Source: an uncultured Lachnospiraceae bacterium (GTDB lineage: Bacteria; Bacillota; Clostridia; Lachnospirales; Lachnospiraceae). From it: a DNA stretch of 55,672 nt. The stretch spans positions 1 to 55,672 of the forward strand of contig CADBOU010000101.1 in NCBI GenBank assembly GCA_902796355.1, in the 5' to 3' direction. This document shows, piece by piece, positions 16,415 to 42,767 of the stretch (position 1 is its first letter; the number at the start of each line of letters is the position of its first letter). The notes beneath the pieces are model-generated. The model saw only the letters and a program-made list of their open reading frames with translations, did no database searches and had not been told where the DNA came from. The position numbers and the translations under genes are program-made.

Positions 16415-16424
16415 TGATACTTCG

Positions 16425-22023: not shown

Positions 22024-22602
22024 TTAGGCTTGTACAGTAGGATCAAGCGATGCGAAGGGCTTTCGCTCATCTGTATCTACGATTGCCTGATCATTTACTT
22101 TTTCAGCTTCTTCATATTTACCCAGGCGGCGCAGCATTGTCTTTTTGACCGCCCGGAAAATATTCTCATAACCTGTGCAGCGGCAGAGATGGCCGGAGAG
22201 GAGTTTGCGCAGTTCATCATCTGTGTATTCCTTACCGGTGTTGAGGATTTCCCATGCAGAGAGGATAAATCCCGGTGAACAGAATCCGCACTGGATTGCG
22301 GTTTCATCGATAAATGCCTGCTGGATATCTGATAGTTCTCCGCCGGGGCCCATTAAACCTTCCAGTGTCGTAATGTTTTTACCTTCTGCCCATACAGCCA
22401 GATAAATACAGGAGTCAAAAGCTTCGCCATCGATAATGACAGTACAGGCTCCGCATTCTCCGACTTCACAGCCTTTTTTGACGCTGGTCATACGGTAATC
22501 ATTGCGCAGCATATCTGTGAGAGAAGCGCGTACATCCACATTTTTTTCAGTCGGTTTTCCGTTCAGGGTAAAATGAACTGTTTTATATTTCCGTTCACTC
22601 AT
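22024..22602 (-). CDS. Molybdenum hydroxylase (xanthine dehydrogenase family) [2Fe-2S] small subunit
   Basis: CEVGECGACTV, CGFCSPG and CRCTGY motifs. 192 aa with a tail of about 35 aa. The start overlaps the FAD-subunit stop (ATGA). Confidence 0.9.
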   Translation of the reverse strand: MSERKYKTVHFTLNGKPTEKNVDVRASLTDMLRNDYRMTSVKKGCEVGECGACTVIIDGEAFDSCIYLAVWAEGKNITTLEGLMGPGGELSDIQQAFIDETAIQCGFCSPGFILSAWEILNTGKEYTDDELRKLLSGHLCRCTGYENIFRAVKKTMLRRLGKYEEAEKVNDQAIVDTDERKPFASLDPTVQA

Positions 22603-23483
22603 TTTACGTCACCTCCTGCTTTTTTGATTGATTCGCGCAAGGCTCTCTGAGCCATTACGACAGCCATATGCTCACGGAACTGTTTGCCGCCGCGCCATGA
22701 ATCACGCGGGTTGATATCTTTTAACACCTCTTTACCGAACTGTTCGACATGTTCTTCAGTGATTTCTTTGCCGTTGATATATTCTTCGGCGGAAGGAGCA
22801 CGCATGGGAACTGGTCCTGCGACCCCGTAAGCAATACGAACGCGATCAAAAGTTTTTTTGTCATCGGATAAGCGTACATTCACTGAGCAGCCAATATTGG
22901 CGATCTCGAGGGCATTGCGCTTGCCGTATTTGATGTAATGTCCGAAGCAGTTCTCATAAGAAGATTTTGGAATCAGAATGGCTGTCTGTATTTCTCCCTG
23001 GTGTAAATCAACCGTGCCGGCTTTGATGTAGAAATCTTTGATCGGTTCATAACGAACGCCGTCAGGGCCGGTAATCTCAATGATGGCTTCCCACGCATGA
23101 AGCGTTGAGGCGGAGTCGGCAGAAGTCACACCGTTACAAGTGTTGCCGCCGATAGTGCCGATCGCACGAACCTGCGGTCCGCCGATCATGTTCACGGCTT
23201 CACCGAGAACACCTATCTTTTCCTGAATAATAGGATTCTTAGTGATGTTTGAAAAACTGGTCAGCGAACCGATGCGCACGTTTTCATCTTTATCGATACT
23301 GATGCCACGCAATTCATCAAGCATATAAATGCTTACAAGCTCTTTGCCTGCACGCTTTCCCTCACGAACCTGTACCAGAACATCAGAGCCTCCGGCAATT
23401 ACCTGTGCTTCGGGATGCTCTGTCAAAAGACGGCATGCATCCTGTACGCTTTCAGCTTCATATAAAGCTTTGATATCATACAT
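22599..23483 (-). CDS. Molybdenum hydroxylase FAD-binding medium subunit (CoxM/XdhB-like)
   Basis: 294 aa. AGGSDVLVQ and IGGNTCNG are FAD-binding PCMH-type motifs. The start overlaps the large-subunit stop by 1 nt. Confidence 0.9.
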   Translation of the reverse strand: MYDIKALYEAESVQDACRLLTEHPEAQVIAGGSDVLVQVREGKRAGKELVSIYMLDELRGISIDKDENVRIGSLTSFSNITKNPIIQEKIGVLGEAVNMIGGPQVRAIGTIGGNTCNGVTSADSASTLHAWEAIIEITGPDGVRYEPIKDFYIKAGTVDLHQGEIQTAILIPKSSYENCFGHYIKYGKRNALEIANIGCSVNVRLSDDKKTFDRVRIAYGVAGPVPMRAPSAEEYINGKEITEEHVEQFGKEVLKDINPRDSWRGGKQFREHMAVVMAQRALRESIKKAGGDVK

Positions 23484-25834
23484 CAGTGCTCGCCTCCTTC
23501 CTCTTCAATCAGACCGGCTTCCACATAGTTTTTATACAGGACATCCGGAGAGAGCGGAATTTCATTGATAAAGCATCCAGTTGCCTGTGCAACAGCAGCC
23601 CGTATAGCAGGAGCAACCGGACATACCGGCGGCTCTCCCAGACCTTTGGTGCCGTATGCACTGGTAGGTTCATAGTTTTCAACAAACTCACCGACAAGTC
23701 TTGGATGATCCATGAACGATGACAGTTTATAGTCAAGCAGATTATTGTTCAGCGGACGGCCTGTCTTCTGATCAAACAGGAGCTTTTCTGAAAGGGCATA
23801 ACCGATGCCCATGCTCTGGCCGCCGTGTACCTGTGCCTCTGCAAGAGCCGGGTTGATTACCTGACCGCAGTCATGCACATTGACAATATTGAGCAGACGT
23901 ACACGGCACATCGGAATATCCACCTCGACTTCTGCAAAGCAGCAGCCAAATGAGAACGCATTTGTTTTGATGTGCGCTGTCGTTTCTGATGTCAAATGTA
24001 CACTGTGATCGCGGCTGTAAAGAGCAGTTGTAGCCAGCTCCTTCATACTCATCAGAATGCGGCCGTCTGTTTTACGGACAATGTTGTTGTCTATTATGTC
24101 CATGATATAAGGCTGCATACGTGTCAGTTCATAGGCATATTCAAGAATTCTCTTCTTCATTTCCAGAGCAGTCTTGCGGACTGAAAAACCTAGAGTATAG
24201 GTGCCTCTGGAAGCGTAGACACCGGTACCGAACGGAGTCACATCGGTATCCTGACATGAGACAGTATGGACTTTATCTAATGTCAGGCCGATTGATTCGG
24301 CTGTCATCTGAGCTGCTGCAGTATCAGCGCCCTGACCGATTTCAGTTTCAGCCAGCTGCACCTGAACAGAACCATCCTGATTTAAGACCATTCGACAGGA
24401 TGATGTCTCAAGGGCAATCGGATATACTGCCGTATTGTACCAGAATGTAGCAACGCCGATACCCCGCCGTACATCTCCGGTCTGAGGCTTTTTATACTCC
24501 TCATATTTTTTGGTATATCCGATAGTCTTATCACCTTTATCAAAGCACTGATTGAACGTATCGCTGTACAGCTCATTGCCTGAAAAGGCATGAACAAAAC
24601 CAACCGGCATCAGATTTTTACGCTTAAATTCCAGAGGATCCATGCCGAGCGCTCTGGCACAGTCATCAGCATTTGCTTCCATGGCATAAGAGCCTTGCGG
24701 CATACCGTATCCCCGCATTGCTCCCGCGACAGGCTTGTTGGTAAAAACAGTCCAGGCATCACCTTCTATATTGTCGCAAGGATACAGTTGCGGAAACGCG
24801 TTGAGCGATTTGGCGGCGATCGCATGTCCATGCGATGCGTAGGCACCCTGATCAGCCCACGCTTCATATTTTCTGGCGGCAAAAGTACCGTCTTTCCTTA
24901 AATAAGAAATGATATGGAAGCGCTCACCGTGACGGACACGGTTATTGACAAATGTTTCCTCACGCGGGACATCGATTTTGACAAGACGTCCGCCCAGCTG
25001 CATTGAAAGCCAGACACAGAGCGGTTCGTACAGTGTATCCTGTTTGTTGCCGAAACCACCGCCGACATAGGGCTTGATGACTCTGAATTTGCCCCAGTCC
25101 ATATCGAGAGCCTGCCCGATACAGCGACGTACAATATGAGGAATCTGAGTGGAAGAGTAGCAGACATAGCGGTCATCGCCTTCACCGTATGCAAAGCATT
25201 CGAAGTTCTCGATATGACAGTGCTGAACAGTGGGCACATCATACCAGCCTTCTACCTTAATCAACCCTTCCTCTTTGATTGCTTCTTCGTAATTTCCCTG
25301 ATGAATCTGTGTATGGGCCAGCACATTTCCGGGATAATCCGGATGAAGTAAAGGCGCGTCATCTTTGATGGCGTCATGCACATCCAGAACGAACGGCAGT
25401 TCTTCATATACTACCTTGTCTTTCAGTACGCGTATAGCCTGTGCTGCTGCGATTTCATCTTCAGCGACGACGGCTGCAATATCATCACCGTAATAGAGCG
25501 GATGATCTGTCAGCAACAGTCTGTCTGCGACGTCCTGATGCGAGGGTTCAACAGACCAGGGATGTCCGGGTGTGGGAAAATAATGTCTGGGTACATCAAA
25601 GCATGTGAAAATGCGCACAATGCCGGGGATTTTTTCAGCTTCAGAAGTGTCAATGGATTTGACGATTCCATTGGCTACCGAAGAGTGAAGAATCCGGGTG
25701 CATAATGCGCTTTTGTCACAAAGGTCATCAACATATTTGACACGTCCGATCGCTTTATCATGTGCGTCGAGACGGGTGAAGGATTTCCCTATAATCTTGT
25801 TGCCTACATCGGGATATCCGTTGTCTATGCTCAT
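23483..25834 (-). CDS. Molybdenum hydroxylase molybdopterin-binding large subunit (xanthine dehydrogenase family)
   Basis: GGGFGNKQ, AMRGYGMPQ and GLGEPP motifs. ATG 25834 sits behind AAAGGAGGTGG and is preferred over the track start at 25855, which lies upstream of that SD. Confidence 0.9.
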   Translation of the reverse strand: MSIDNGYPDVGNKIIGKSFTRLDAHDKAIGRVKYVDDLCDKSALCTRILHSSVANGIVKSIDTSEAEKIPGIVRIFTCFDVPRHYFPTPGHPWSVEPSHQDVADRLLLTDHPLYYGDDIAAVVAEDEIAAAQAIRVLKDKVVYEELPFVLDVHDAIKDDAPLLHPDYPGNVLAHTQIHQGNYEEAIKEEGLIKVEGWYDVPTVQHCHIENFECFAYGEGDDRYVCYSSTQIPHIVRRCIGQALDMDWGKFRVIKPYVGGGFGNKQDTLYEPLCVWLSMQLGGRLVKIDVPREETFVNNRVRHGERFHIISYLRKDGTFAARKYEAWADQGAYASHGHAIAAKSLNAFPQLYPCDNIEGDAWTVFTNKPVAGAMRGYGMPQGSYAMEANADDCARALGMDPLEFKRKNLMPVGFVHAFSGNELYSDTFNQCFDKGDKTIGYTKKYEEYKKPQTGDVRRGIGVATFWYNTAVYPIALETSSCRMVLNQDGSVQVQLAETEIGQGADTAAAQMTAESIGLTLDKVHTVSCQDTDVTPFGTGVYASRGTYTLGFSVRKTALEMKKRILEYAYELTRMQPYIMDIIDNNIVRKTDGRILMSMKELATTALYSRDHSVHLTSETTAHIKTNAFSFGCCFAEVEVDIPMCRVRLLNIVNVHDCGQVINPALAEAQVHGGQSMGIGYALSEKLLFDQKTGRPLNNNLLDYKLSSFMDHPRLVGEFVENYEPTSAYGTKGLGEPPVCPVAPAIRAAVAQATGCFINEIPLSPDVLYKNYVEAGLIEEEGGEH

Positions 25835-25958
25835 AGCTCCACCTCCTTTGAACATTTACATATTTATATTTTAAATGAATCACAATAGTAAGTAAATAGC
25901 ACCTGAGCAAAAATTTTTTAATTTACTAAAACTTTTTGCAAAATATTGTTCTGATTCG

Positions 25959-25987: not shown

Positions 25988-26032
25988 GAATCTGTAGAAC
26001 GTTGTTTCTAAACATGAGAAGGAGATGCTTGT

Positions 26033-27502
26033 ATGATATCCCTGAAAAAAAATGAAAAAGCACTTGAACATAACATTGAGAAGGCAAGAGAAAACAATAT
26101 TATCCTGCCGACAATTGCACAGCTGAGAGATCCGAATCTCATTCCCGATTCGATCAAAGAGAAGCTGAAAGATGTCGGCCTGTGGGATATCAATCCGCTC
26201 AATCTTTTCCGGATCACATGGAGAAATGAGCCTAAAGAAAGCGGCGGATTATTCGGCAAACCTAATTATATTGTTTTACCGCCGGAACTGACCGGTGTCA
26301 AAGCCAGAATCATCTGTATGGTTGGAAAATTCTTTCCGACAGGATGCCATAAAGTCGGTGCATCTTACGGATGTCTGATTCCCAGGCTTGTCACAGGACA
26401 GTTTGATTCAACATACAATAAAGCAGTGTGGCCTTCCACAGGAAACTACTGCCGCGGCGGCGCCTTCGATTCCAAACTTCTCGGAGTAGATTCGATCGCC
26501 ATTCTTCCCGCAGAGATGAGTCAGGAGCGTTTTGACTGGCTTAAGTCCATCGCCGGCGAAGTGATTGCGACTCCGGGATGCGAGAGCAACGTCAAAGAGA
26601 TTTTTGACAAAACCTGGGAGCTGCGCGAGACCAGAGATGATGTTGTCATTTTTAATCAGTTTGACGAGATGGGCAACTATATGTGGCATTACAATGTCAC
26701 CGGTACAGCCATCCAGGGCGCTTTTGAAGATATGAAGAAGGATGGGGACCGCTTTGCAGGTGCGATCTTCACATCAGGTTCAGCCGGAACGATGGCCTCT
26801 GGTGATTATCTGAAGCAGCAGTATCCGGGATTGAAGCTCGGTGTTGGTGAAGCACTTCAGTGCCCGACACTGCTTGACAACGGTTTTGGCGGCCACCGTA
26901 TTGAAGGCATTGGCGATAAGCATGTACCGTGGATTCACAATGTCAAGAATACGGACCTGGTTGTCGACATTGATGACGAAGATTCCCAGAGACTGATTCG
27001 CTTCATGAATGAGCCGGTTGCCCGTGAATACCTGAAGAAGGAACGCGGTGTAGATCCTGCACTTGTCGATGTCCTTGATTACTTCGGTATTTCCGGCATT
27101 GCCAACATGCTTTGCGCGATTAAGATGGCCAAGTACTATGAGATGGATGAGCACGATGTCATCGCAACAGTTATGACTGACTCTGCACAGATGTATCAGT
27201 CCCGTATCCAGGAGCTTGTCGATCAGGATGGCGAGTACACACCGGTGATGGCTGCAGTTGACTATGAGAAGCATCTGCTTGGCCAGAGCACTGACAATAT
27301 GCTTGAGCTGCGCTACACAGACCGCAAGAGGATCCACAACCTCAAGTATTACACATGGATTGAGCAGCAGGGACGTGAGATCCAGGATCTGAATGATCAG
27401 TGGTATGATTTTGAGAAAGCATGGGGATCAGTCCAGAAGCAGGCTGACGAGATCGACGGCCTGATTAATGAGTTTAACGAGAGAACAGGTCTTCTCAAGT
27501 AA
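26033..27502 (+). CDS. Long fold-type-II (TrpB/CysK-like) PLP-dependent enzyme of unknown specificity; possibly OrtB-like PLP-dependent lyase/thiolase
   Basis: 489 aa behind GAAGGAGA. FPTGCHKVGAS resembles the TrpB HTGAHK PLP-lysine motif (Lys107, codon 26351-26353). Gly-rich FTSGSAGT loop. No small OrtA-like partner ORF is nearby. Family assignment is from memory only. Confidence 0.55.
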   Translation: MISLKKNEKALEHNIEKARENNIILPTIAQLRDPNLIPDSIKEKLKDVGLWDINPLNLFRITWRNEPKESGGLFGKPNYIVLPPELTGVKARIICMVGKFFPTGCHKVGASYGCLIPRLVTGQFDSTYNKAVWPSTGNYCRGGAFDSKLLGVDSIAILPAEMSQERFDWLKSIAGEVIATPGCESNVKEIFDKTWELRETRDDVVIFNQFDEMGNYMWHYNVTGTAIQGAFEDMKKDGDRFAGAIFTSGSAGTMASGDYLKQQYPGLKLGVGEALQCPTLLDNGFGGHRIEGIGDKHVPWIHNVKNTDLVVDIDDEDSQRLIRFMNEPVAREYLKKERGVDPALVDVLDYFGISGIANMLCAIKMAKYYEMDEHDVIATVMTDSAQMYQSRIQELVDQDGEYTPVMAAVDYEKHLLGQSTDNMLELRYTDRKRIHNLKYYTWIEQQGREIQDLNDQWYDFEKAWGSVQKQADEIDGLINEFNERTGLLK

Positions 27503-27538: not shown

Positions 27539-28777
27539 ATGAAAAATGTGATTTCAGCTGTCTGCGTCGAATGCGGCGCAGAGTATGAAGCAACTCCGGG
27601 AACGACAGTATGTAAAAAATGCGGCGGTATTCTTGATATCAAATATGATTATCAATATATCAAGAATCACATTTCAAAAGAAGAAATGGCCGACAGGCGT
27701 GAGAATTCCATGTGGCGTTACAAGGAATTCCTCCCCGTGGAAGGGATTGGCAAACGGCCGAAACTTCGTGTCGGCTGGTCACCGTTCTACCATGCTGTCC
27801 ATTTGGAAGAGCTTCTGGGCGTGAAAGAGCTCTATGTCAAAGATGACGGGATTAATCCAACATCCAGTTTGAAAGACCGTGCATCGGCGATGGCTGTTGT
27901 CAAGGCGGAGGAGGCAGGCGTTGACACAATCTGCTGCTCATCCACCGGTAACGCGGCTTCATCGCTCGCCGGTAATGCTGCAGCTGCCGGATTTAAGACG
28001 TACATCTTTGTCCCCTCACGTGCGCCAAAGGGAAAAGTGTCACAGCTTTTAAACTTCGGTGCGACTGTCATGAGCGTGGAAGGCTCTTATGAAGAGACTT
28101 TCAATATGTCTGCCATCGCGATCGACAGATACGGGTGGTATAACCGCAATGCAGCAATCAATCCCTATCTGATGGAAGGGAAAAAGACAGTGGCTCTGGA
28201 AATTGCTGAGCAGCTTGGATGGAAGATGACAGACTATGTGGCACTTTCAGTCGGTGATGGCTGTACGATTGCCGGTGTCTGGAAAGGCTTTAAGGATCTC
28301 TATGCTGCCGGCTTTATTGACAGATTGCCGCGGCTCATTTCTGTTCAGGCAGAAGGGTGCTGCCCGCTCAACAAGGCGATCGCCGAGGATAAACCCTGGG
28401 AGCCCATGGAGGAAAACACAATCGCTGACAGCATCGCTGTCGGCGTTCCCCGCAATGCAACCAAAGCACTCAACGCAATCCGGGAGTCAAACGGCGTGGT
28501 CGTGAATGTCTCTGACCAGGAGATTCTTGATGCGATGAAACTGCTTGGCCGTACCTGCGGTGTGTTTGGGGAACCGGCCGGTGTCGCCGGGACAGCCGGA
28601 CTTAAAAAAGCTGTGGAGCAGGGACTTGTGCCTAAGGACGCCTCGTTCGTTTCCATTGTCACTGGAAACGGCTTGAAGGATGTCGTGAATGCAATCAAAG
28701 CGGCCGGAGAGCCGATCAGTCTTAAACCGGATAAAGATTTGCTGCTACAGACATTCAGAAAACTTGGTGTGGAGTAG
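27539..28777 (+). CDS. Threonine-synthase-family PLP enzyme with N-terminal zinc ribbon (divergent active-site motifs)
   Basis: 412 aa. CVECG...CKKCGG ribbon, PLP-lysine motif NPTSSLKDRAS, SSTGNAASS loop and TGNGLKD near the C-terminus. The overall pattern resembles archaeal-type short ThrC. Confidence 0.7.
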   Translation: MKNVISAVCVECGAEYEATPGTTVCKKCGGILDIKYDYQYIKNHISKEEMADRRENSMWRYKEFLPVEGIGKRPKLRVGWSPFYHAVHLEELLGVKELYVKDDGINPTSSLKDRASAMAVVKAEEAGVDTICCSSTGNAASSLAGNAAAAGFKTYIFVPSRAPKGKVSQLLNFGATVMSVEGSYEETFNMSAIAIDRYGWYNRNAAINPYLMEGKKTVALEIAEQLGWKMTDYVALSVGDGCTIAGVWKGFKDLYAAGFIDRLPRLISVQAEGCCPLNKAIAEDKPWEPMEENTIADSIAVGVPRNATKALNAIRESNGVVVNVSDQEILDAMKLLGRTCGVFGEPAGVAGTAGLKKAVEQGLVPKDASFVSIVTGNGLKDVVNAIKAAGEPISLKPDKDLLLQTFRKLGVE

Positions 28778-33651: not shown

Positions 33652-36639
33652 ATGAGTGATCTTATGACTTGTATGCCGTTTGGGCATATTATGAATTGGA
33701 TTCAAAGAGAGAAGAAAGAGAGCGGCACCATTTTTGGTGTTCATAAATTCTACAAGGCCGAAGGCGACGCACCGCTGACAATCTTTGAGCGTCCGCTTGA
33801 GACAGAGATCGGACCGGCAGCCGGCCCGAACTCGCAGCTTGCCCAGAATATCATTGCTTCATATGCAGCCGGAGCCAGGTTTTTTGAGTTGAAAACCGTA
33901 CAGCAGATGGATGGCCGCGAGCTGGCAGCCTGTGTTAACAAGCCGTGCATCAAAGCGGAAGATGAATGCTATAACTGCGAATGGTCTACAGAGCTGACGC
34001 TTCCGGAGGCTCAGGAGGAGTATATCAAAGCGTGGTTTGCACTCCATGTTCTGGCGAAAGAATACGGTATGGGATTGGCAGACGGTTTCCAGTTTAACAT
34101 CAGTGTCGGATATACACTTGACGGTATTAAAACAGAAAAGGTGACCACCTTTGTCAACAACATGATGCAGGCTAAGGATACGGATATCTTTAAGGAATGC
34201 AAAGCATATCTCCTTGATCATATCGATGAGTTTGAGCATCTGACCAAAGAAGATGTTGAAGCGATCCCCTCTGATATCTGTAATTCAGCAACGATCTCAA
34301 CCCTGCATGGATGTCCTCCCAATGAGATTGAGAGCATTGCCAATTATCTGATTCTGGAGAAGCATCTGCATACGTTTATCAAATGCAATCCAACTCTTCT
34401 CGGATATGATTTTGCGAGAGAGACACTGGATAAACTCGGCTTTGATCAGCTGGTATTCGGTGCTTTCCACTTTAATGATGATCTGCAGTACAATGACGCA
34501 GTTCCGATGCTGCAGCGCCTGATGAAGCTTGCTGACGAGCAGGGACTGCAGTTCGGTGTCAAGCTGACCAACACATTCCCGGTGGATGTCCGCAGAAACG
34601 AACTGCCTGCCGAAGAGATGTACATGGCTGGTAAATCCCTCTATCCGCTGACAATCAATCTGGCGGCTAAGCTATCCAATGATTTTGACGGCAAACTGCG
34701 TATCGCATTCTCAGGCGGTGCTGAGTACTTTAATATCGACAAAATTGTCGGATGCGGCATCTGGCCTGTCACAATGGCGACCACACTCCTTAAGCCGGGC
34801 GGCTATAACCGTTTTGAGCAGATGGTTGAGAAGCTGAACACTCTTCCCAGAAAAGAGTGGGACGGCATTGATCTTGATGCGCTCAATACGCTGGCAAAAG
34901 AGGCGCTTTCTGATCCGCATCACACCAAGGCTGTTAAACCGGCACCGTCACGCAAAATTGATGATCCTGTACCGCTCACCAATTGCTTTATGGCCCCGTG
35001 TGAGGCAGAGTGCCCGATCCATCAGGATATTGCAACTTACATGAAACTGGCCGGAGAAAACCGCTATGACGATGCGTTGCGTGTCATTCTGGAGCGCAAT
35101 GCACTTCCGTTTATCACCGGTACAATCTGCGCACATCCCTGCCAGGGCGCCTGTACACGTAATTTCTACGAGACACCTGTACAGATTCGCGATACGAAGC
35201 TTAAATGCGCTGAGGCGGCATTTGAGAAGGTTCTGGATGAAGTAAAAGTGCGCGGCGAATGCGGCTTAAGTGCAGCTGTTGTCGGCGGCGGTCCTGCTGG
35301 TATGGCGGCAGCTTATTATCTTGCACGGGCAGGTGTGAAAGTCACATTGTTTGAGAAGGAAGATAAGCTTGGCGGTATTGTCAGCAAGGTCATTCCTGAT
35401 TTCAGAATTGATCAGTGTGCTATCGACAAGGATGCTGAGCTCTTACAGAAACTCGGCGTCGATATTCAACTTGGAACAGAGGCACCGGCTGTTGCTGAAT
35501 TGAAAGAGAAGTTTGATGCGGTTGTTCTCGCAGTCGGCGCATCCAAGAGAAGCACTCTTGTGCTGGATGACAAGAAGGCTGTTAACGCACTTGACTTCCT
35601 TGAGGAGTTTAACGCCAAGAAGGGAGAAGTCGATCTTGGTAAGCATGTCGTCGTGATTGGAGGCGGCAACACAGCGATGGATACGGCACGTGCAGCCAAA
35701 CGCTGCAGCGGAGTAGAGGAAGTCGATCTGGTATACCGCCGCTCAAAACGCTATATGCCTGCAGATGAACATGAGCTTCTCCTTGCGGTAGAAGACGGGG
35801 TCGTCTTTAAAGAGCAGCTTGCGCCGTTTAAGATGGAAGATGGCGCTATCATTTGTCATGTCACGAAACTTGGTGAACCGGATGCATCAGGCCGCGCCGG
35901 CGTCATTGAGACTGACGAGGAAGTGTGTCTCAAAGCCGATACGGTTATTGCAGCCATTGGCGAGAAGGTCCCGGGAGATTATTATGATGCTGCCGGCCTT
36001 AAGACTGATGAAAAAGGCCGTCCGGTTGTCGATGCGGCAACGACAAAAGCAGCTGACGGAATCTATGTCATCGGTGACGGACTGTATGGACCAAAGCTTG
36101 TCGTCACTGCAATGCAGCAGGCGATGGCAGCGGCTGCGGACATCATCAGTTCAGATGTAGCCGGTGATGTGGCAGAAAAAGCAGATGAACATAAGACAAT
36201 TCGCAAGAAGGGCATCCTCTGCGAGCCGGATCCGGCTGTCAACGAAGGGGATCGATGCCTGTCATGCTCGACAATCTGCGAAAACTGTGTTGATGTCTGC
36301 CCGAATAGAGCCAATAAGTGCATTAAGGTTCCGGGACTTCCCATGGCTCAGATCCTTCACGTGGATTACATGTGCAATGAATGCGGTAACTGTGAGACTT
36401 TCTGCCCATACAGCAGTGCTCCGTACAAAGACAAATGGACGCTGTACAAGAATGAAGAAGAGTTCGCAGACAGCGAAAACAACGGCTTCCTTGTACTTGA
36501 TGCCGCAGCCCATAAGATCAAAGTCCGTAAGGGCGAGTGCATTTGCGAGGGAGAGACTGGCGACTGTGAATGCCTTACAAAAGAAGATAAGATGCTGATC
36601 GAAGCAGTGATCGATGATTACAGTTATCTGATCCTGTAA
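33652..36639 (+). CDS. ygfK: YgfK-like multidomain Fe-S flavoprotein oxidoreductase
   Basis: 995 aa. N-terminal DPD/DHOD-like TIM-barrel region. GltD-like Cys clusters (CFMAPCEAECP, CAHPCQGAC). Two dinucleotide folds (VVGGGPAGMAAAYYLARAG, VVIGGGNTAMD). C-terminal 2x[4Fe-4S] ferredoxin motifs (CLSCSTICENCVDVCP, CNECGNCETFCP). Confidence 0.8.
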   Translation: MSDLMTCMPFGHIMNWIQREKKESGTIFGVHKFYKAEGDAPLTIFERPLETEIGPAAGPNSQLAQNIIASYAAGARFFELKTVQQMDGRELAACVNKPCIKAEDECYNCEWSTELTLPEAQEEYIKAWFALHVLAKEYGMGLADGFQFNISVGYTLDGIKTEKVTTFVNNMMQAKDTDIFKECKAYLLDHIDEFEHLTKEDVEAIPSDICNSATISTLHGCPPNEIESIANYLILEKHLHTFIKCNPTLLGYDFARETLDKLGFDQLVFGAFHFNDDLQYNDAVPMLQRLMKLADEQGLQFGVKLTNTFPVDVRRNELPAEEMYMAGKSLYPLTINLAAKLSNDFDGKLRIAFSGGAEYFNIDKIVGCGIWPVTMATTLLKPGGYNRFEQMVEKLNTLPRKEWDGIDLDALNTLAKEALSDPHHTKAVKPAPSRKIDDPVPLTNCFMAPCEAECPIHQDIATYMKLAGENRYDDALRVILERNALPFITGTICAHPCQGACTRNFYETPVQIRDTKLKCAEAAFEKVLDEVKVRGECGLSAAVVGGGPAGMAAAYYLARAGVKVTLFEKEDKLGGIVSKVIPDFRIDQCAIDKDAELLQKLGVDIQLGTEAPAVAELKEKFDAVVLAVGASKRSTLVLDDKKAVNALDFLEEFNAKKGEVDLGKHVVVIGGGNTAMDTARAAKRCSGVEEVDLVYRRSKRYMPADEHELLLAVEDGVVFKEQLAPFKMEDGAIICHVTKLGEPDASGRAGVIETDEEVCLKADTVIAAIGEKVPGDYYDAAGLKTDEKGRPVVDAATTKAADGIYVIGDGLYGPKLVVTAMQQAMAAAADIISSDVAGDVAEKADEHKTIRKKGILCEPDPAVNEGDRCLSCSTICENCVDVCPNRANKCIKVPGLPMAQILHVDYMCNECGNCETFCPYSSAPYKDKWTLYKNEEEFADSENNGFLVLDAAAHKIKVRKGECICEGETGDCECLTKEDKMLIEAVIDDYSYLIL

Positions 36640-36661: not shown

Positions 36662-36693
36662 GAAGCCGCAGCTACCTTAGCTGCGGCTTTTTC
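36662..36693 (+). terminator. rho-independent terminator after ygfK
   Basis: GAAGCCGCAGCT-acctt-AGCTGCGGCTT followed by TTTT. Confidence 0.7.
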
Positions 36694-36803: not shown

Positions 36804-37643
36804 ATGAAGAAGGTATTTGCATTGGTTTTGGCACTGGTTCTGGCAGCTGGTCTGTTTGCCGGATGCGGCTCATCCGGAAGTTCTGACAGCTCTGGTGATT
36901 CCGCTGAGAAATATGGCGAAGGCTGGACATTTAAACATGGCTTTGACAAAGACTTTCCGCCGTATTCATATATCGATGACAACGGGGAGACAACCGGCTT
37001 TGATGTTGAGCTGGCTCAGGCAGTCTGTGAGATAAACGGATGGGAGTATGAGGGAGTTCCGGTCAACTGGGATTCCAAAGATGCGGAACTTCAGTCAGGA
37101 AGCATAGACTGTATCTGGTCAGGATTTACGTTAAGCCCTGACAGAAAAGACAAATACGCCTGGAGTGAGCCTTATTCTATCAATACGATTAAAATTATGG
37201 TGCTTGAAGGATCCGATATCAAAAGCAAGGATGATCTGAAAGGCAAGAAAGTCGGTGTACAGGGCAGTACTTCCGCACAGGAAATGATGGATACACCGGA
37301 TGCAGAAGGCGGATGTGCCGATCTTGCAGCTACGTTTGGCGAAGTGGTTGTGACTGATACTTATACCAATGCCATTACAGAGTTAAAGTCCGGTGCGATT
37401 GATGCGATCGCTATCGATGTGACAACCGGAAATTATCAGATGACGAAGGTCGACGGCCTTGCTTATCTTGATGATGATATCTGTGATGAGATTTATGCTA
37501 TCGGATTCCGCATTGATGATACAGAACTGCGCGATAAAGTTGATGATGCTTTGAAGAAACTGGCTGAAGACGGAACCATGGATGAGATCGGTAAGAAGTA
37601 TGATGAGATTTATGATAATCTCTCCATGATCAATCAGAAGTAA
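36804..37643 (+). CDS. Polar amino-acid ABC transporter substrate-binding lipoprotein (family 3 SBP)
   Basis: Lipobox LFAGC plus a Ser/Gly linker. 279 aa. Typical FDVELA...WSGFT family-3 pattern. Confidence 0.85.
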   Translation: MKKVFALVLALVLAAGLFAGCGSSGSSDSSGDSAEKYGEGWTFKHGFDKDFPPYSYIDDNGETTGFDVELAQAVCEINGWEYEGVPVNWDSKDAELQSGSIDCIWSGFTLSPDRKDKYAWSEPYSINTIKIMVLEGSDIKSKDDLKGKKVGVQGSTSAQEMMDTPDAEGGCADLAATFGEVVVTDTYTNAITELKSGAIDAIAIDVTTGNYQMTKVDGLAYLDDDICDEIYAIGFRIDDTELRDKVDDALKKLAEDGTMDEIGKKYDEIYDNLSMINQK

Positions 37644-37685
37644 TGACAGACTTCAGTTAAGATGGCTGTTCTGATATAAGGATTG

Positions 37686-37735
37686 AATACAGCCGCTGCC
37701 GCCGAATCCTAAGGTGAGGCCGGCGCGGCTGTATT
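37686..37735 (+). promoter_or_regulatory. Intra-operon stem-loop after the binding-protein gene
   Basis: AATACAGCCGC ... GCGGCTGTATT: an 11-bp perfect stem around a GC-rich 28-nt loop, between the SBP stop (37643) and the permease start (37769). Confidence 0.4.
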
Positions 37736-37768
37736 ACTGTAAATATTTTCAAATCATGAGGTAAAAAG

Positions 37769-38416
37769 ATGACTTTATCTACTATGCTGCACACCATGTC
37801 AGCTGGTATGCTGAGAACATGCGGAATATTTATTCTGACTCTGATCGGATCGCTTCCTCTTGGGATGATCGTGGCACTTCTTCGTAAATCAAGATTTGCG
37901 CTCGTGCGCGGTATCGTCAGAGTCTATATTTCAATTATCAGAGGGACCCCTTTGATGCTGCAGCTTCTGGTGTGGTATTTCGGTCCTTTCTATCTGTTTA
38001 ACTGGAATATTGGAAGCTGGAGATTTCCTGCGCTCATTATCGGATTTGTTGTTAATTACGCCGCCTATTTTGCAGAGATTTACCGCGGAGGCATCGAATC
38101 GATCCCTGTCGGTCAGCATGAAGCTGCAGAGGTTCTTGGATTTACTAAAACACAGACTTTTATGCGGATTATTCTTCCTCAGGTGATCAAAACGATCTTA
38201 CCGTCGGTGACAAACGAAGTGATTACGCTTGTAAAAGATACATCACTGGCCTTTACACTGGCCTATCAGGAAGTGTTTTCACTGTCTAAACAGATCTCGG
38301 CGTCACAGTCTTCATTTATGCCGTTTCTGATCGCAGGTATCTTTTATTTTATAGCCAATTATGTTGTCGCCTTTATCATGGAACGCATCGAAAAGGCCAT
38401 GAATTATTACAAATAA
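37769..38416 (+). CDS. Polar amino-acid ABC transporter permease (His/Glu/Gln/Arg/opine family)
   Basis: 215 aa, multi-TM, with the conserved EAAEVLG...ILPQ loop. Confidence 0.85.
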   Translation: MTLSTMLHTMSAGMLRTCGIFILTLIGSLPLGMIVALLRKSRFALVRGIVRVYISIIRGTPLMLQLLVWYFGPFYLFNWNIGSWRFPALIIGFVVNYAAYFAEIYRGGIESIPVGQHEAAEVLGFTKTQTFMRIILPQVIKTILPSVTNEVITLVKDTSLAFTLAYQEVFSLSKQISASQSSFMPFLIAGIFYFIANYVVAFIMERIEKAMNYYK

Positions 38417-38460
38417 TCGCGTTGTAATAACTTATCTTGTTTGAAGGAGATTAACACACG

Positions 38461-39219
38461 ATGATCCTGGAAATGAATCATATAGAGAAACACTTTGGTG
38501 ATCTCGAAGTTTTAAAAGATATCAGCTTTGGTGTGGACAGCGGTGAGGTGGTCAGTATCATTGGCCCGTCAGGTTCCGGAAAATCCACGCTGCTTCGCTG
38601 CGCGACTTTTCTGGAGACGATTGACGGCGGTGAGATTATTTATATGGGAGATAAAGCAGCTCATATGAATGATCAGGGTCAGGCAGTTTATGTTTCGCAT
38701 CAGGAACTGAGACGCTTCCGCAGTTACTATGGGCTGGTATTCCAACAGTTTAACCTGTTTCCGCATTACAGCGTGCTGAAAAACCTGACAGATGCGCCGA
38801 TTCATGTGCAGCACAGAGATCGCAGCGAAGCAGAAGAAACTGCGATGGAACTGCTTGGCAAAATGGGACTTGCCGACCGGGCAGATGCTTATCCGTATCA
38901 GCTGTCCGGCGGACAGCAGCAGCGCGTTGCGATTGCACGGGCACTTGCAATGAAGCCTCAAATCCTGTTTTTCGATGAACCGACGTCGGCGCTGGATCCG
39001 GAATTAACCGGTGAAGTCCTCAATGTCATTCGCCAGCTGGCAGAAGAAAAGATGACCATGGTTGTTGTCACACATGAAATGTCTTTTGCCAAGGCAGTCA
39101 GCAACCGCGTCATATTTATGGACGGTGGATTGATTGTCGAGCAGGGGGACCCGGCTGAGGTATTTGATCATCCGAAAGAAGACAGAACAAAACAGTTTTT
39201 ACGCGTTTTTGAGAGATAA
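38461..39219 (+). CDS. Polar amino-acid ABC transporter ATP-binding protein (GlnQ-like)
   Basis: [34 protein letters not shown]. 252 aa. Confidence 0.9.
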
Positions 39220-40049
39220 TGAATCAGATTGTATACAGCTTGATGAATCCGACCGGGAACATCACTGCGCTGGTGGAAAGTGATGTGGATGCTCGTGAAT
39301 ATCTGAGCGCGGCATCCGCTATCATGGACCGCCATCCGGAGGTGGAACAGGTCGGATTTGTCCAATTTAATATGCGGCCTGAACATCTGACAGATGGGCA
39401 GCTGCGCATGGCAGGCGGTGAGTTTTGCGGAAATGCCAGCATGAGCACAGCCGCATTGTATTTGATACGCTCCAAAATGGCTTCCAAAGATCTGCTGCTT
39501 TCTGTTTCAGGCGTGAGGGAGCCTGTCCGTATTCATGTAGAGCAAACAGACATCAGGACCTGTTCTGCCTGCGTTGAGATGCCGCCGGTCCGTTCCATTG
39601 ACAAGGTGGAGCTGTCTTTTAACGGAATCACAGAGCGCCTTCCGATTGTCAATCAGGAGGGTATTTCACATCTGATCATAGAACCGGAATGTGCATTTTC
39701 TGCGCTGGAAGAACACTCAGAGCAAGCTGAAAAGGCTGTCAGGCAGTGGTGTGCAAAGATGAACACCGAGGGCCTCGGATTGATGTTTTTAAGGCCTGAT
39801 ACGGACAGTGAATCATTGTATCATCTGCGGCCTCTGGTCTATATTCCGGCGGGCCAGACTATTTTCTGGGAACATTCCTGTGCCAGCGGCAGTGCTGCTG
39901 CAGGCAGGTATCTGGCTGAGCATCTGCATCAAGATACAGACATTGAATTAAATGAGCCCGGAGGCCTTTTGAGAGTTGTCAGTCATCTGTCTGACAACAG
40001 GACCCTTCTGTATGGAAAAATCAGTCTGATCGGAACGTACAACACCTGA
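39219..40049 (+). CDS. DapF-fold, cofactor-independent two-cysteine racemase/epimerase-like protein (not canonical DapF)
   Basis: 276 aa. Cys70 in GGEFCGNAS and Cys221 in EHSCASGSAAAG are placed like the DapF catalytic pair, but the DapF N-terminal GLGNDF motif is replaced by NPTGNITALV. The ATG overlaps the ATPase stop codon (TAATG). Confidence 0.6.
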   Translation: MNQIVYSLMNPTGNITALVESDVDAREYLSAASAIMDRHPEVEQVGFVQFNMRPEHLTDGQLRMAGGEFCGNASMSTAALYLIRSKMASKDLLLSVSGVREPVRIHVEQTDIRTCSACVEMPPVRSIDKVELSFNGITERLPIVNQEGISHLIIEPECAFSALEEHSEQAEKAVRQWCAKMNTEGLGLMFLRPDTDSESLYHLRPLVYIPAGQTIFWEHSCASGSAAAGRYLAEHLHQDTDIELNEPGGLLRVVSHLSDNRTLLYGKISLIGTYNT

Positions 40050-40075
40050 CATTTCATCTGAATATTTGCTATAAT
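40046..40075 (+). promoter_or_regulatory. Putative strong promoter of the hydantoinase-xdhC pair
   Basis: CTGACA (40046-40051), 18 nt, extended -10 TGCTATAAT (-10 hexamer at 40070-40075). Confidence 0.45.
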
Positions 40076-40077
40076 AT

Positions 40078-40103: not shown

Positions 40104-40115
40104 GAGGCGGTCAAA

Positions 40116-41648
40116 GTGAAAAAGACATTACTGAAAGGCGGCAGAGTTGTATCGGGAACATCTGTGAAAAAAGCCGATGTCCTGATTATAGATGATAAGA
40201 TTGCAGCTGTTGGGCCGGATCTTATGATGGAGCAGGAAAAACCGGGCTGTTCATGTCCTTACCGGACAGTAGACGGCGCATCAAAGAGTCAGTCTGAATA
40301 TGTGAAATGCAACCGTGGCGGTGATAACGGACATCAGTCGTGCACCGTTACGCCTGCTGATCTTGCCGGAGCTGAGATTGTTGATGTGAGCGATAAGCTG
40401 ATCTTTCCCGGATTCATTGATACACATACTCATTTTCAGATGCAGGCAGCCGAGTGCGTCACTGCAGATGATTTTGACAGCGGAACACGGGCAGCTTTGG
40501 CAGGCGGAACCACATCCATCTTGGATTTTACAACGCAGGACAAAGGCGATACCCTGATGGCTGCACTTGATCACTGGCATGAGATGGCTGATGGTCACTG
40601 CTCCTGTGATTATAGTTTTCACATGTCTATTACTGACTGGAACCCGGATGTCAAAAAAGAGATCCCTTTGATGACACGGGAAGGAATTACCTCATACAAA
40701 GTGTATATGGCATATAAGAATCTGCGTATTTCTGACCGTGAGATATATGAAATCCTGCAGGCGGTTGCGCAGGAGGGAGGGATTATCGGTACGCACTGTG
40801 AAAACGGCGACTTGATTGATGCGGTAACAGCTACGTTAAAAGCGAGAGGAATCACCGGGACATCAGCACATCCGATCGCACACAGCAGAGAAATCGAATC
40901 CGAAGCGGTCAACCGGTATCTGACGATTGCAGGCGAAGCAGATGTTCCGGTTAATATTGTTCACCTGAGCACAAAGCAAAGTCTGGATTTTGTCCGTAAA
41001 GCCCGCAAGAGAGGACAGCTGATCTTCGTTGAAACATGTCCGCAGTATTTTTTCCTTGATGATTCCCTGTATTCCCTGCCGGACTTCGAGGGAGCAAAAT
41101 ATGTCTTTTCTCCGCCGGCAAGAAAGACTGAGGATCAGGATGCCTTGTGGGAGGGGTTAAAGCACGGTGAGATTGATACCATTGGCACCGATCACTGCAG
41201 CTTCAATTTTGCAACAGAAAAAAAACTCGGCATTGATAATTTTGCCAGGATACCGAACGGGATACCTGGAACAGAGCACCGGCCGGCTCTGATGTTTGCA
41301 TACGGTGTGCTCAAAAACCGTATCACCAACCAGGCATTCTGCAGACTGCTGTCTGAAAATGCGGCTAAAGAATACGGTATGTATCCTCAGAAAGGTGTGA
41401 TTCAGGCCGGTTCCGACGCGGACATTGTTGTCTGGGATCCGTCCGCCAGATGGACGATCAGGGCATCGGAACAGACACAGAATGTAGATTATACGCCTTA
41501 TGAAGGAATGGACGTGTGCGGAAGAGCAGAGAGGGTTTATTTACATGGTGTTCTGGCAGCAAAGGACGGTCATGTGGTCGCCGGCGGACATGGACAGTTT
41601 ATCAGCAGGAAGGCCTCGGATCTTTCTTTCAGAGAACCCGGGGCATAA
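40116..41648 (+). CDS. hyuA: D-hydantoinase / dihydropyrimidinase-family cyclic amidohydrolase (HyuA-like) with an N-terminal-domain insertion
   Basis: GTG start behind AAAGGAGG. Metal motif FIDTHTHFQM, carboxylated-Lys motif ITSYKVYMAY, GTHCENG, IVHLS and GTDHCSF. 510 aa, against the roughly 460 aa I recall as typical. Confidence 0.85.
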   Translation: MKKTLLKGGRVVSGTSVKKADVLIIDDKIAAVGPDLMMEQEKPGCSCPYRTVDGASKSQSEYVKCNRGGDNGHQSCTVTPADLAGAEIVDVSDKLIFPGFIDTHTHFQMQAAECVTADDFDSGTRAALAGGTTSILDFTTQDKGDTLMAALDHWHEMADGHCSCDYSFHMSITDWNPDVKKEIPLMTREGITSYKVYMAYKNLRISDREIYEILQAVAQEGGIIGTHCENGDLIDAVTATLKARGITGTSAHPIAHSREIESEAVNRYLTIAGEADVPVNIVHLSTKQSLDFVRKARKRGQLIFVETCPQYFFLDDSLYSLPDFEGAKYVFSPPARKTEDQDALWEGLKHGEIDTIGTDHCSFNFATEKKLGIDNFARIPNGIPGTEHRPALMFAYGVLKNRITNQAFCRLLSENAAKEYGMYPQKGVIQAGSDADIVVWDPSARWTIRASEQTQNVDYTPYEGMDVCGRAERVYLHGVLAAKDGHVVAGGHGQFISRKASDLSFREPGA

Positions 41649-41669
41649 ACGATACAGGAGGCACGTTAG

Positions 41670-42767
41670 ATGTATGATGTAAGTTTGTTCAGCAAGATTG
41701 CAGAGGCGATCAAAAATGGCCGCGTGTGGGTTGCCACATGTGTCGAGAATGAGTCAGTCAAGTGGAAAATTGTTTTCACGGCGGACGAGATACTGCACAG
41801 AGAACCGGAAGATTTAAATGTCGATGAAGCCTGTTCTCTGAGCGCAGCTCCCTATGATTCTATTCTTGACTTATGGCGTACACGGTTTAATGCGGAAACA
41901 CTGGTTGACGGTGAGCGTCTGATTCTTCTGGAATCCTTTGGCCAGAGAAAACATCTGGTGATCTGCGGAGCAGGCCATGTGGCATTGAATCTGATCAAAA
42001 TGGCTAAGCTGGTGGGATTCAATGTCACATCACTTGAGGACAGACTTGTTTTTGCCAATATGGCGACTGAAGCCGGCGCAGATGAAGTAATCTGCGATGC
42101 CTTTGATCAGGGCCTTCAAAAAGTAGTGTCCACCGAGGATACCTGTTTTGTGATTATGACACGCGGGCATCGCTTTGATGAAATGTGCCTCCGTGAGATT
42201 TTCAAGAAACAGTATGCTTATATCGGGATGATGGGCAGCAAGGGACGTGCAATCAATGTAAGGCGTGACATGGAAAAAGAAGGCATTGATAAAGACACGT
42301 TAGCTGCTCTGCACGCGCCTATCGGGATGGAAATTGGCGCTCAGACACCATCGGAGATTGCGGTCAGCGTTTTGGGCGAATTGATCCATTTTCTCCGTTC
42401 TAATGACCGCGCTATCGACGATGGGATTGAGAGTGTTATTCAGGGTGCTGTGGATCCAACACAATACGGGGTTGGTAAAGTGATGGCTACGATTGTCTCA
42501 AAGAGAGGAGCTACGCCGCGTACAGTGGGGACTAAAATGATGGTTCTGGGGACCGGCCGTATTATCGGTACAATCGGCGGCGGATGTGCGGAAGCAGATG
42601 TCATCACACAGGCCAGAGCCATGATCCAGGAAGAACGCGAAAAAGGGCCTGATGCCGTTGAGCCGCGTATCGTGAACGTCGATCTGACAGGGGCACAGGG
42701 CTTTGATGAAGATGCGATGCACTGCGGCGGAATCCAGGATGTTCTGCTCGAGCTGGTTGCAGACTGA
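41670..42767 (+). CDS. xdhC: XdhC/CoxI-family molybdenum-cofactor insertion/maturation protein
   Basis: Central Rossmann-like LVICGAGHVALNLIKMAKLVGFNV. A canonical XdhC_CoxI-type segment sits at the C-terminus (ATIVSKRGATPRTVGTKMMV...GTIGGGCAEADV...HCGGIQDVLLE). Confidence 0.8.
   Translation: MYDVSLFSKIAEAIKNGRVWVATCVENESVKWKIVFTADEILHREPEDLNVDEACSLSAAPYDSILDLWRTRFNAETLVDGERLILLESFGQRKHLVICGAGHVALNLIKMAKLVGFNVTSLEDRLVFANMATEAGADEVICDAFDQGLQKVVSTEDTCFVIMTRGHRFDEMCLREIFKKQYAYIGMMGSKGRAINVRRDMEKEGIDKDTLAALHAPIGMEIGAQTPSEIAVSVLGELIHFLRSNDRAIDDGIESVIQGAVDPTQYGVGKVMATIVSKRGATPRTVGTKMMVLGTGRIIGTIGGGCAEADVITQARAMIQEEREKGPDAVEPRIVNVDLTGAQGFDEDAMHCGGIQDVLLELVAD

Follow-up and report, generated by a model that had tools for sequence, protein, structure and literature searches.

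The contig CADBOU010000101.1 of an uncultured Lachnospiraceae bacterium (assembly GCA_902796355.1, positions 1 to 55,672 of the forward strand; this whole stretch of 55,672 nucleotides is called the window below) contains an island of genes of purine and ureide catabolism (22024-42767), which genuinely belongs to a known pathway cluster but is incomplete. The island probably represents a composite Lachnospiraceae-like locus, in which a split or partial 2,8-dioxopurine cluster has been merged with three other modules, namely, serC-serA-SerBK, a pair of genes for pyridoxal phosphate (PLP) enzymes, designated PLP-A and PLP-B, and a cystine-type ATP-binding cassette (ABC) importer with a racemase. 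The PLP pair is the part worth following up: it may be an accessory module linked to anaerobic purine/ureide catabolism and acting on a three-carbon amino acid, and it is tentatively suggested here that PLP-A and PLP-B form an unrecognised two-enzyme module of this metabolism, conserved in at least eight phyla.

According to both papers in which the reductive urate pathway was solved in 2025 (PMC12507026; bioRxiv 10.1101/2025.04.24.650524), xanthine dehydrogenase (XDH) converts hypoxanthine and xanthine to urate; XdhD (DOPDH) converts urate to 2,8-dioxopurine; HyuA opens the hydantoin ring after the step of YgfK and SsnA; two ureido groups are removed by YgeW with carbamate kinase (or by UacY) and then by YgeY; YgeX catalyzes the terminal step from 2,3-diaminopropionate to pyruvate; and the selenium-cofactor genes SelD, YqeB and YqeC are also needed. 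Reduction of 2,8-dioxopurine and opening of its ring are assigned to YgfK and SsnA (PMC12507026; for YgfK, also bioRxiv 10.1101/2025.04.24.650524), and XDH and DOPDH are distinct enzymes, both of which are needed (bioRxiv 10.1101/2025.04.24.650524).

Genes of this pathway were found in the window by open reading frame (ORF) listing and by Pfam and NCBIfam profile scans over its 55.7 kb; loci retrieved for comparison from other genomes and metagenomes are labelled L001-L171. The minus strand contains the genes xdhC (22024..22602), encoding the [2Fe-2S] subunit of xanthine dehydrogenase (NF043084, 253.5 bits against a cut-off of 217; Pfam Fer2 and Fer2_2), xdhB (22599..23483), encoding the FAD subunit (NF043083, 416 against 310), and xdhA (23483..25855), encoding the molybdopterin subunit of the XDH type (NF043082, 1125.6 against 780); all three pass the XdhABC equivalog cut-offs, and the three-subunit molybdenum hydroxylase operon proposed in the initial annotation is thereby confirmed. 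The plus strand contains ssnA (32305..33636), encoding the ring-opening amidohydrolase (NF005540, 667.7 against 444; TIGR03314, 582.4 against 455.5), and, 15 bp further on, ygfK (33652..36639), encoding 2,8-dioxopurine reductase, DOPOR (TIGR03315, 1287 against 835), as well as hyuA (40116..41648), encoding D-hydantoinase/dihydropyrimidinase (TIGR02033, 552 against 393, in two matched stretches), and the gene of an XdhC-family molybdenum-cofactor insertion factor (41670..42767; NF045664, 234.9, below the cut-off of 350). The adenine deaminase gene ade (18492..20228, plus strand), also reported in the initial annotation, passes TIGR01178 (612.8 against 472.5). In the proposed locus, XdhABC would convert hypoxanthine and xanthine to urate, with the XdhC-type chaperone serving its cofactor, YgfK and SsnA would reduce and open 2,8-dioxopurine, and HyuA would open the hydantoin ring.

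HyuA carries a Cys-rich insert of ~47 aa (about residues 35-85) in its N-terminal domain (…PGCSCPYRTVDG…YVKCNRGG…HQSCTV…), and the two stretches matched by TIGR02033 lie around it; the insert could be a metal-binding or redox element. The domain order of the XdhC-family factor is swapped, the Rossmann domain XdhC_C (96-238) preceding XdhC_CoxI (269-323), while the XdhC-family protein of L075 has the opposite order (XdhC_CoxI 13-70, Rossmann domain 121-269). The gene ade, 2 kb upstream of the island, is located within the glycolytic run (15407-21853), between tpi and gpmI, an unusual site for a gene of purine salvage or catabolism, and 4 bp at its end are shared with gpmI, for which a TTG start was called. 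Proximity of ade to PLP-A is repeated in six further loci (L012, L016, L023, L059, L067 and L079).

The genes for ArcC, YgeW, YgeY, YgeX and the YheO-type regulator are absent from the 55.7-kb window, as tblastn with the canonical cluster of a relative gave no match at E<=1e-3. The absence of the ygeW-, ygeX-, ygeY- and arcC-type partners, claimed in the initial annotation, thus stands, but it had overlooked that xdhD, yqeB, yqeC, mocA and the gene of the YheO-type regulator are missing as well. XdhABC, which is not of the XdhD/DOPDH type, is the sole molybdenum hydroxylase of the window. In the same tblastn search of the window, XdhD of the relative matched XdhA and XdhC only, at the paralogue level of 29-35% identity; the window XdhA is 29% identical to this XdhD and 50-51% identical to the products of xdhA genes adjoining xdhD in relatives. 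No match was found in the window to YqeB, YqeC, MocA or the UacX-like protein, the search for yqeB and yqeC, which had been proposed for the rest of the genome, being run within the window only, and SelD gave no match in Pfam and NCBIfam scans of the window ORFs, no tblastn search for selD having been made. No OTCase or D-aminoacylase domain occurs in any window ORF of at least 100 aa, and no carbamoyltransferase, M20 hydrolase or D-aminoacylase able to remove ureido groups is encoded in the window; the sole AA_kinase gene (42857-43561, 234 aa) occupies the pyrH position immediately before frr and uppS. With the diaminopropionate ammonia-lyase model (cut-off 276), PLP-B gives only 50 bits. The entry enzyme XdhD and the cofactor genes are absent, and SsnA and YgfK would get no substrate from the genes of the island alone.

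A position of the missing genes immediately beyond the cluster, considered in the initial annotation, is excluded, because both flanks are represented by housekeeping genes: gap-pgk-tpi-ade-gpmI upstream and pyrH-frr-uppS-cdsA-dxr downstream. The GC content along the window is flat (0.45-0.49), with no compositional break, and horizontal acquisition was rejected on this profile. As XdhD/DOPDH and the selenium-cofactor genes are also absent, a split cluster explains the island better than a new downstream branch.

Splitting of the pathway between loci is common in relatives. Among 80 metagenome loci retrieved with the window SsnA as the query, the arrangement of the window is found in only 4 contigs (L087-L090), with SsnA 85-91% identical; the closest of them are JAEEGL017365464.1 (L087) and JAEIGA010053296.1 (L088). 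Most relatives with SsnA of 70-74% identity have the canonical divergent pair arcC<ygeW<ygeY<ygeX<yheO< >ssnA>ygfK>(hyuA)>xdhD, and a large group, also with SsnA 70-74% identical, has the split type ssnA>ygfK>xdhD>xdhA>xdhB>xdhC, where ygeWXY are missing from the 5-10 kb upstream. Because the split arrangement is common among SsnA relatives, we infer that the missing genes for XdhD, YgeW, ArcC, YgeY, YgeX, the YheO-type regulator, YqeB, YqeC and MocA are located at a second locus.

In L005, the order is arcC<ygeW<ygeY<ygeX<reg< >PLPA>PLPB>serC>DUF1015>ssnA>ygfK>xdhD, and L169 and L170 show the same pattern, with the canonical genes and the PLP pair together. The PLP pair, serC and DUF1015 adjoin ssnA/ygfK or ygeXYW-arcC in L005, L009, L169, L170 and L087-L090. 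As most relatives carrying the PLP and serine genes keep ygeW/X/Y-arcC, these genes add to the canonical partners and do not replace them.

The initial annotation had explained the island by a variant downstream branch of the pathway, in which PLP-A, PLP-B, SerC, SerA, the DUF1015 protein and the importer-racemase unit replace YgeW, YgeX, YgeY and carbamate kinase and act on different ring-opened intermediates. This explanation, highly unlikely in our assessment, draws on the absence of the four canonical genes from a window with housekeeping flanks, on the position of the PLP pair and the serine genes in one transcription unit with ssnA-ygfK, and on the lack of ygeX in 12 of the 15 loci with YgeY and PLP-A. 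However, the window has no enzyme for removal of the two ureido groups; the entry enzyme XdhD and the selenium-cofactor genes are missing too, so genes elsewhere would be needed anyway; and relatives with PLPA-PLPB-serC-DUF1015 beside ssnA keep ygeWXY-arcC. Comparison of ssnA neighbourhoods did reveal synteny of the PLP pair, serC and DUF1015 in several relatives, but the canonical partners are kept in most of them, so that replacement of these partners by the extra genes is not supported. The serC-serA-DUF1015 genes and the importer-racemase genes also have purine-free contexts of their own, the former being a published serine operon and the latter a self-contained module found elsewhere beside Rrf2-nifS-nifU.

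The order of genes given in the initial annotation for the strand divergent from xdhA, namely, two PLP enzymes, serC, serA, DUF1015, ssnA and ygfK, then the amino acid ABC importer with a DapF-fold racemase, and then the hydantoinase-xdhC pair, was confirmed throughout by ORF, Pfam and NCBIfam analysis. The intergenic region between xdhA and PLP-A contains two A5-T5 dyad boxes, read from the sequence (25907-25921 and 25926-25939). It is followed on the plus strand by the gene of PLP-A (26033..27502), a fold-type-II PLP enzyme of the CysK/CBS clade (Pfam PALP 32.8, below the cut-off of 35), and the gene of PLP-B (27539..28777), a ThrC-like PLP enzyme with an N-terminal Zn-ribbon (TIGR00260, 214 against 167). 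PLP-A to ygfK is a seven-gene same-strand run with intergenic gaps of 15-115 bp. The PLP pair appears to be co-transcribed with ssnA-ygfK, because the run ends just past ygfK at a terminator-like hairpin (36662..36690, plus strand; 13-bp stem with 7 GC pairs and a T-rich tail), which ranks first among the terminator-like sites of the scan.

When the neighbours of PLP-A in 80 species-level loci were clustered without bias, PLP-B was present in 42 loci, an OTCase-family carbamoyltransferase in 23, carbamate kinase in 16, the large subunit of a molybdenum hydroxylase in 15 and the YgeY-type M20 hydrolase in 14, with D-hydantoinase, adenine deaminase, nucleoside ABC transporters, SsnA and YgfK at lower ranks; two further recurrent 'families' were discarded as antisense ORFs in high-GC loci. 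Where the locus extends at least 5 kb on both sides (n=30), at least one purine marker is present in 21/30 loci, at least two in 17/30 and at least three in 12/30, and a purine marker is located in the same-strand gene run of PLP-A in 20/68 loci. Genes of purine and ureide catabolism thus accompany the PLP pair repeatedly and in different phyla, so their adjacency is not accidental; on this point the initial annotation is supported. Judging from gene neighbourhoods, the link of the PLP pair to purine/ureide catabolism is real and general, without loss of the canonical partners.

Operons of this kind are present in distant phyla. In Acetomicrobium (Synergistota), L047:7476-18067 has the order YgeY'-PLPB-PLPA-YgeY-carbamoyltransferase-UacXlike-XdhA-XdhB and looks like a variant uricolytic cluster without ygeX; its carbamoyltransferase is unclassified, and its UacX-like protein is a PreA/PydA-type reductase with a ferredoxin tail. 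Halanaerobiales L045 contains PLPA-PLPB-regulator-hydantoinase-YgeY-carbamoyltransferase-XdhA-XdhB-FeS, Ignavibacteria L075 contains YgeY-carbamoyltransferase-PLPB-MocA-PLPA-XdhC, and Clostridiales L022 contains PLPA-YqeB-YqeC/MocA-ModE-XdhC. In Lachnospiraceae, the PLP pair typically lies divergently to the ygeX-ygeY-ygeW-arcC operon (L005, L009, L169, L170) and is often followed by serC, serA or DUF1015, while in L011 the ygeX set and the PLP pair are both present in another arrangement. SerA, SerC and the DUF1015 kinase are repeatedly encoded beside PLP-A (the window, L005, L008, L009, L025, L041, L169 and L170). Cultured carriers of PLP-A include Diplocloster modestus ASD4241 (L011) and a Blautia strain of the L009/L170 type, both with purine linkage, and Anaerotignum sp. 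MSJ-24 (L019), in which such linkage is lacking.

The OTCase-family genes near PLP-A in distant phyla (L045, L061, L075, L079) almost all score under each of the curated cut-offs (for the ornithine, putrescine, aspartate and YgeW types), one gene of L079 just passing the N-acetylornithine carbamoyltransferase model (297.9 against 288), and in Thermotogota they are often tandem paralogues. By sequence, these carbamoyltransferases may be an undescribed transcarbamylase subfamily.

PLP-A belongs to no curated family, the cut-offs of all NCBIfam CysK models being far above its scores (best TIGR01139, 82 bits against 351). Its best sequence match in PDB has E=1e-16. In the AlphaFold2 model (predicted local distance difference test score 78), the best fold matches found by Foldseek are CBS, beta-cyanoalanine synthase, CysK and SbnA, at ~22% identity and with probability 1.0 to CysK and CBS; in the alignment with 7n2t, K107 falls on the PLP lysine and STGN on TSGN, and ~70 extra N-terminal and ~100 extra C-terminal residues, helical, surround the core fold. 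PLP-A is, as far as sequence comparison goes, a compact, extremely conserved family: the best 120 database clusters show 71-94% identity, and the value is 60-79% for species representatives (closest representative 79%), which span Bacillota, Chloroflexota, Thermotogota, Synergistota, Atribacterota, Bacteroidota, Ignavibacteria and others. A search of 1.84 billion cluster representatives (50% identity) gave only 335 matches below E=1e-30, with only a handful full-length among those listed.

PLP-B aligns over its full length with threonine synthases of PDB (E=4e-67), and its NF006050 score of 301 is just under the cut-off of 303. Its motif NPYLMEGKKT is located where four solved threonine synthases have NPxR[IL]EGQKT, so that Leu replaces Arg, and its orthologues have L, M or T at this position in 48/48 cases in which the motif could be located. 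This Arg corresponds to Arg160 of T. thermophilus, which we take to bind the substrate phosphate; literature searches on this point gave nothing usable.

The PLP pair might represent non-orthologous displacement of YgeX, in which PLP-A and PLP-B would yield pyruvate or serine from 2,3-diaminopropionate or albizziin; serine formed in this way in Lachnospiraceae could then pass via SerBK, SerC and SerA to 3-phosphoglycerate. This is unlikely. Its main support is that, among 42 loci with YgeY and a carbamoyltransferase or ArcC, 12 contain PLP-A only, 27 ygeX only, 3 both and none neither (Fisher p=4e-8), but the locus sets came from different queries and are phylogenetically non-independent, so this p value overstates the case; L169 and L170, which carry both genes, were found after the tally and are not counted in it. 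In L007, L010 and L039, ygeX is absent, without a remnant, from its usual slot between ygeY and the divergent promoter, PLP-A being located across this promoter; in L047, the PLP pair is present between two YgeY paralogues of a UacX-type uricolytic operon without ygeX; and in PLP-B another residue takes the place of the Arg that all four solved threonine synthases share and that presumably binds the substrate phosphate. On the other hand, L041 has a true DpaL in the same operon as PLP-A, the fold of PLP-A resembles beta-replacement synthases and not ammonia-lyases, and no enzyme of the window could supply diaminopropionate. Simple replacement of YgeX was rejected as the main explanation because five Lachnospiraceae loci (L005, L009, L011, L169 and L170) carry both ygeX and the PLP pair; in a narrower form of the idea, the pair might be able to stand in for YgeX.

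Ordinary biosynthesis, with PLP-B as threonine synthase and PLP-A as O-phosphoserine-dependent cysteine/homocysteine synthase working with SerA, SerC and SerBK, and with adjacency to purine genes brought about only by shared nitrogen regulation or chance rearrangement, is somewhat unlikely. It agrees with the TIGR00260 thrC cut-off passed by PLP-B, the CysK-clade fold of PLP-A and the very high conservation of its family, as well as with the different surroundings of the pair (serC/serA/DUF1015, dapF and an aminotransferase, glutamine synthetase with glutamate synthase, CysK/MetY/NifS), in all of which the same upstream dyad motif is present. Against this, the pair is located within catabolic operons of Synergistota, Halanaerobiales, Ignavibacteria, Chloroflexota and Thermotogota, its top recurrent neighbours are catabolic, not biosynthetic, PLP-B lacks the conserved Arg of ThrC, and L025 carries canonical CysK too.

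Several points weigh against a composite locus with a purine-linked PLP pair. The second locus is deduced and not observed, and all functional statements on PLP-A and PLP-B are drawn from the fold of the proteins and the neighbourhood of their genes. Some loci have PLP-A without any purine genes in the vicinity: dapF and an aminotransferase precede it in L001-4, it stands alone in several loci of Christensenellaceae and other Clostridia, and in L171:1-12789 (Lachnospiraceae-like) the pair comes directly after glnN (type III glutamine synthetase), amtB-PII, gltB and gltD. The A5-T5 dyad boxes, such as GCAAAAATTTTTTAA and CTAAAACTTTTTGC, ~8 nt apart, are present upstream of PLP-A in many Clostridia (L005, L007, L009, L010, L014, L017, L019, L087, L169, L170 and L171), in purine-linked and unlinked loci alike, which fits a general amino acid/nitrogen regulon better than control specific to purines.

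A looser dyad pattern gave at least two boxes in 10/81 loci (background, 0.017 boxes per 260 bp), and the strict pattern (CWAAAAWWTTTTWG, one mismatch allowed) was found in 6/78 loci and is too narrow. The box resembles the CodY box at 12/15 positions; this resemblance is our own reading and makes it a candidate only. In seven related loci where PLP-A is preceded by a long gap, the only Rfam match was a valS T-box. The arrangement in L171 ties the PLP pair to ammonia assimilation, not to purines.

For the proposed module of PLP-A and PLP-B, set in the gene neighbourhood that is linked to selenium-dependent molybdenum hydroxylases, two roles are conceivable. In the first, the pair would be a YgeX-independent exit, converting 2,3-diaminopropionate or albizziin to serine, which in Lachnospiraceae would continue through SerBK, SerC and SerA to 3-phosphoglycerate. 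In the second, O-phosphoserine-dependent synthesis would provide a sulfur or selenium donor for the enzymes of the pathway, rich in Fe-S clusters and molybdenum cofactor, and this would explain the position of the PLP pair beside YqeB, YqeC, MocA and XdhC. The preferred chemistry, with confidence somewhat short of even, is O-phosphoserine-dependent beta-replacement by PLP-A, for which SerA, SerC and SerBK would supply the substrate. Precedents for such O-phosphoserine pairing are SbnI/SbnA, the gene sbnA adjoining the serine kinase gene sbnI, and archaeal SerK/OPSS. Processing of 2,3-diaminopropionate or albizziin by the PLP pair, which could then stand in for YgeX, is a doubtful second choice, and ordinary amino acid biosynthesis functionally unconnected to purines is equally doubtful. 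The C. acidurici genome paper contributed the classical glycine-serine-pyruvate background only.

The PLP pair was not found to be mentioned in the urate-cluster papers or in the wider literature searched. In the study of Li et al., PF00291 was used as the YgeX marker within a 15-gene neighbourhood (PMC12507026). This marker would also count PLP-A and PLP-B as YgeX, and earlier neighbourhood surveys would have scored them accordingly.

The serine genes adjoin the PLP pair on the plus strand and are represented by serC (28809..29900), encoding phosphoserine aminotransferase (NF003764, 500.6 against 253; TIGR01364, 484.8 against 443.6), serA (29919..30830), encoding a short 3-phosphoglycerate dehydrogenase of 303 aa (Pfam 2-Hacid_dh and 2-Hacid_dh_C), and the DUF1015 gene of the 'SerBK' family (30946..32268; PF06245, 200.7 bits, above the Pfam cut-off), with gaps of 18 bp and 115 bp. 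SerA is devoid of the C-terminal regulatory domains, matching positions 1-299 of 525 of the TIGR01327 profile (317 bits, below the cut-off of 454). The DUF1015 protein stands in for SerB and is a proposed serine kinase related to SbnI (bioRxiv 10.1101/2024.10.14.618325), and Clostridioides difficile, C. botulinum and Bacteroides carry its gene in one operon with serA and serC (bioRxiv 10.1101/2024.10.14.618325, GapMind 2026). By gene content and order, serC-serA-DUF1015 of the window is this published serine/O-phosphoserine operon arrangement. The glycine-synthesis genes GlyXL/GlyXS (GapMind 2026) were considered as a possible identity of the PLP pair and rejected as unrelated, one product being ribonucleotide-reductase-like and the other an ACT-domain protein.

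The importer-racemase module consists of four genes (36804..40049, plus strand), encoding a polar amino acid importer with a substrate-binding protein of the SBP_bac_3 family (36804-37643), a permease and an ATPase (36804-39219 for the three) and a DapF-fold racemase of the CntK_N family (39219-40049; E=8e-26 to PDB 6l4l). The best NCBIfam matches of the importer include cystine transporter models, all below cut-off. In the racemase, both catalytic cysteines are present (Cys70 in GGEFCGNAS, Cys221 in WEHSCASGS), NF033599 gives 139 bits, below the cut-off of 300, and the nearest relatives outside its own species are ~50% identical. The module resembles a separate transcription unit that was inserted after ygfK and before hyuA, because the hairpin follows ygfK and a promoter-like site precedes hyuA (40046..40075, plus strand; 11/12 hexamer positions and a TG extension), the best such site in the scan. 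The same four genes are divergent from Rrf2-nifS-nifU in both other Clostridia contexts found (2/2; L167 and L168), with no purine genes nearby, and transfer of the module to the purine cluster seems to have taken place in the lineage of the window. Rrf2-nifS-nifU of the window is located at 10761-12925, 24 kb from the module.

An Rfam scan of the whole window detected RNase P RNA only (bacterial, class A, at 1-302, cut by the window start) and no riboswitch, so it gives no ligand clue. A second GAPDH-family gene (14055-15182, minus strand; 375 aa, Gp_dh_N and Gp_dh_C) is divergent from the canonical gap (15407-16414). The genes of DUF5717 (1100 aa) and DUF5716 (438 aa) are adjacent downstream of rseP (47949-52564) and are followed by an ORF of 255 aa with no Pfam match.

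The reductive urate pathway of gut anaerobes is a target of probiotic development for hyperuricaemia and gout. If the PLP pair belongs to it, the published eight-enzyme scheme would be incomplete for many Lachnospiraceae and several other phyla, and gene-marker surveys of urate degraders, in which PF00291 served as the YgeX proxy (PMC12507026), would need refining. If the pair is only biosynthetic, PLP-A would still be an unannotated family, very highly conserved in anaerobes, and the label 'threonine synthase' would probably be wrong for PLP-B. Taken by itself, the island is unremarkable; it illustrates that genes of the pathway are frequently divided among loci, so a presence/absence call made from a cluster can mislead.

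Compared with the reductive urate cluster of E. coli, C. sporogenes and Enterocloster bolteae, the window has SsnA, YgfK and HyuA that pass equivalog cut-offs, an XdhABC-type xanthine dehydrogenase with an XdhC-type chaperone alongside, and adenine deaminase nearby, but it is devoid of XdhD/DOPDH, YgeW (or UacY), YgeY, YgeX and carbamate kinase, as well as of the YheO-type regulator, YqeB, YqeC and MocA. Its ssnA-ygfK genes are apparently in a transcript with PLP-A, PLP-B, serC, serA and DUF1015, and the ABC importer-racemase module is located between ygfK and hyuA. Similar to the SerBK operon of Clostridioides difficile, C. botulinum and Bacteroides, serC, serA and DUF1015 are adjacent on one strand; unlike it, the window version is preceded by two PLP enzymes, continues into ssnA-ygfK and has a 115-bp gap from serA to DUF1015.

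PLP-A shares with the CysK/CBS/SbnA clade, including the O-phosphoserine users OPSS and SbnA, the core fold, the PLP-binding lysine and the Ser-Thr-Gly-Asn loop, although it is only ~22% identical to these enzymes, falls below every family cut-off and forms a compact family of its own. PLP-B is similar to class I ThrC (PDB 2zsj, 6cgq, 2d1f, 1uim) in the PLP lysine motif SLKDR, the STGN loop and the passed TIGR00260 model, and differs from it in the N-terminal CxxC...CxxC Zn-ribbon, in the lack of the motif Arg and in travelling with PLP-A and purine genes, not with hom and thrB. The racemase has the CntK_N family assignment and two catalytic cysteines in common with CntK and the Fusobacterium HisR histidine racemases of the DapF fold; 6l4l, its match in PDB, was deposited as diaminopimelate epimerase, and, in contrast to CntK and HisR, the racemase of the window is linked to a cystine-type ABC importer and not to opine-metallophore genes.

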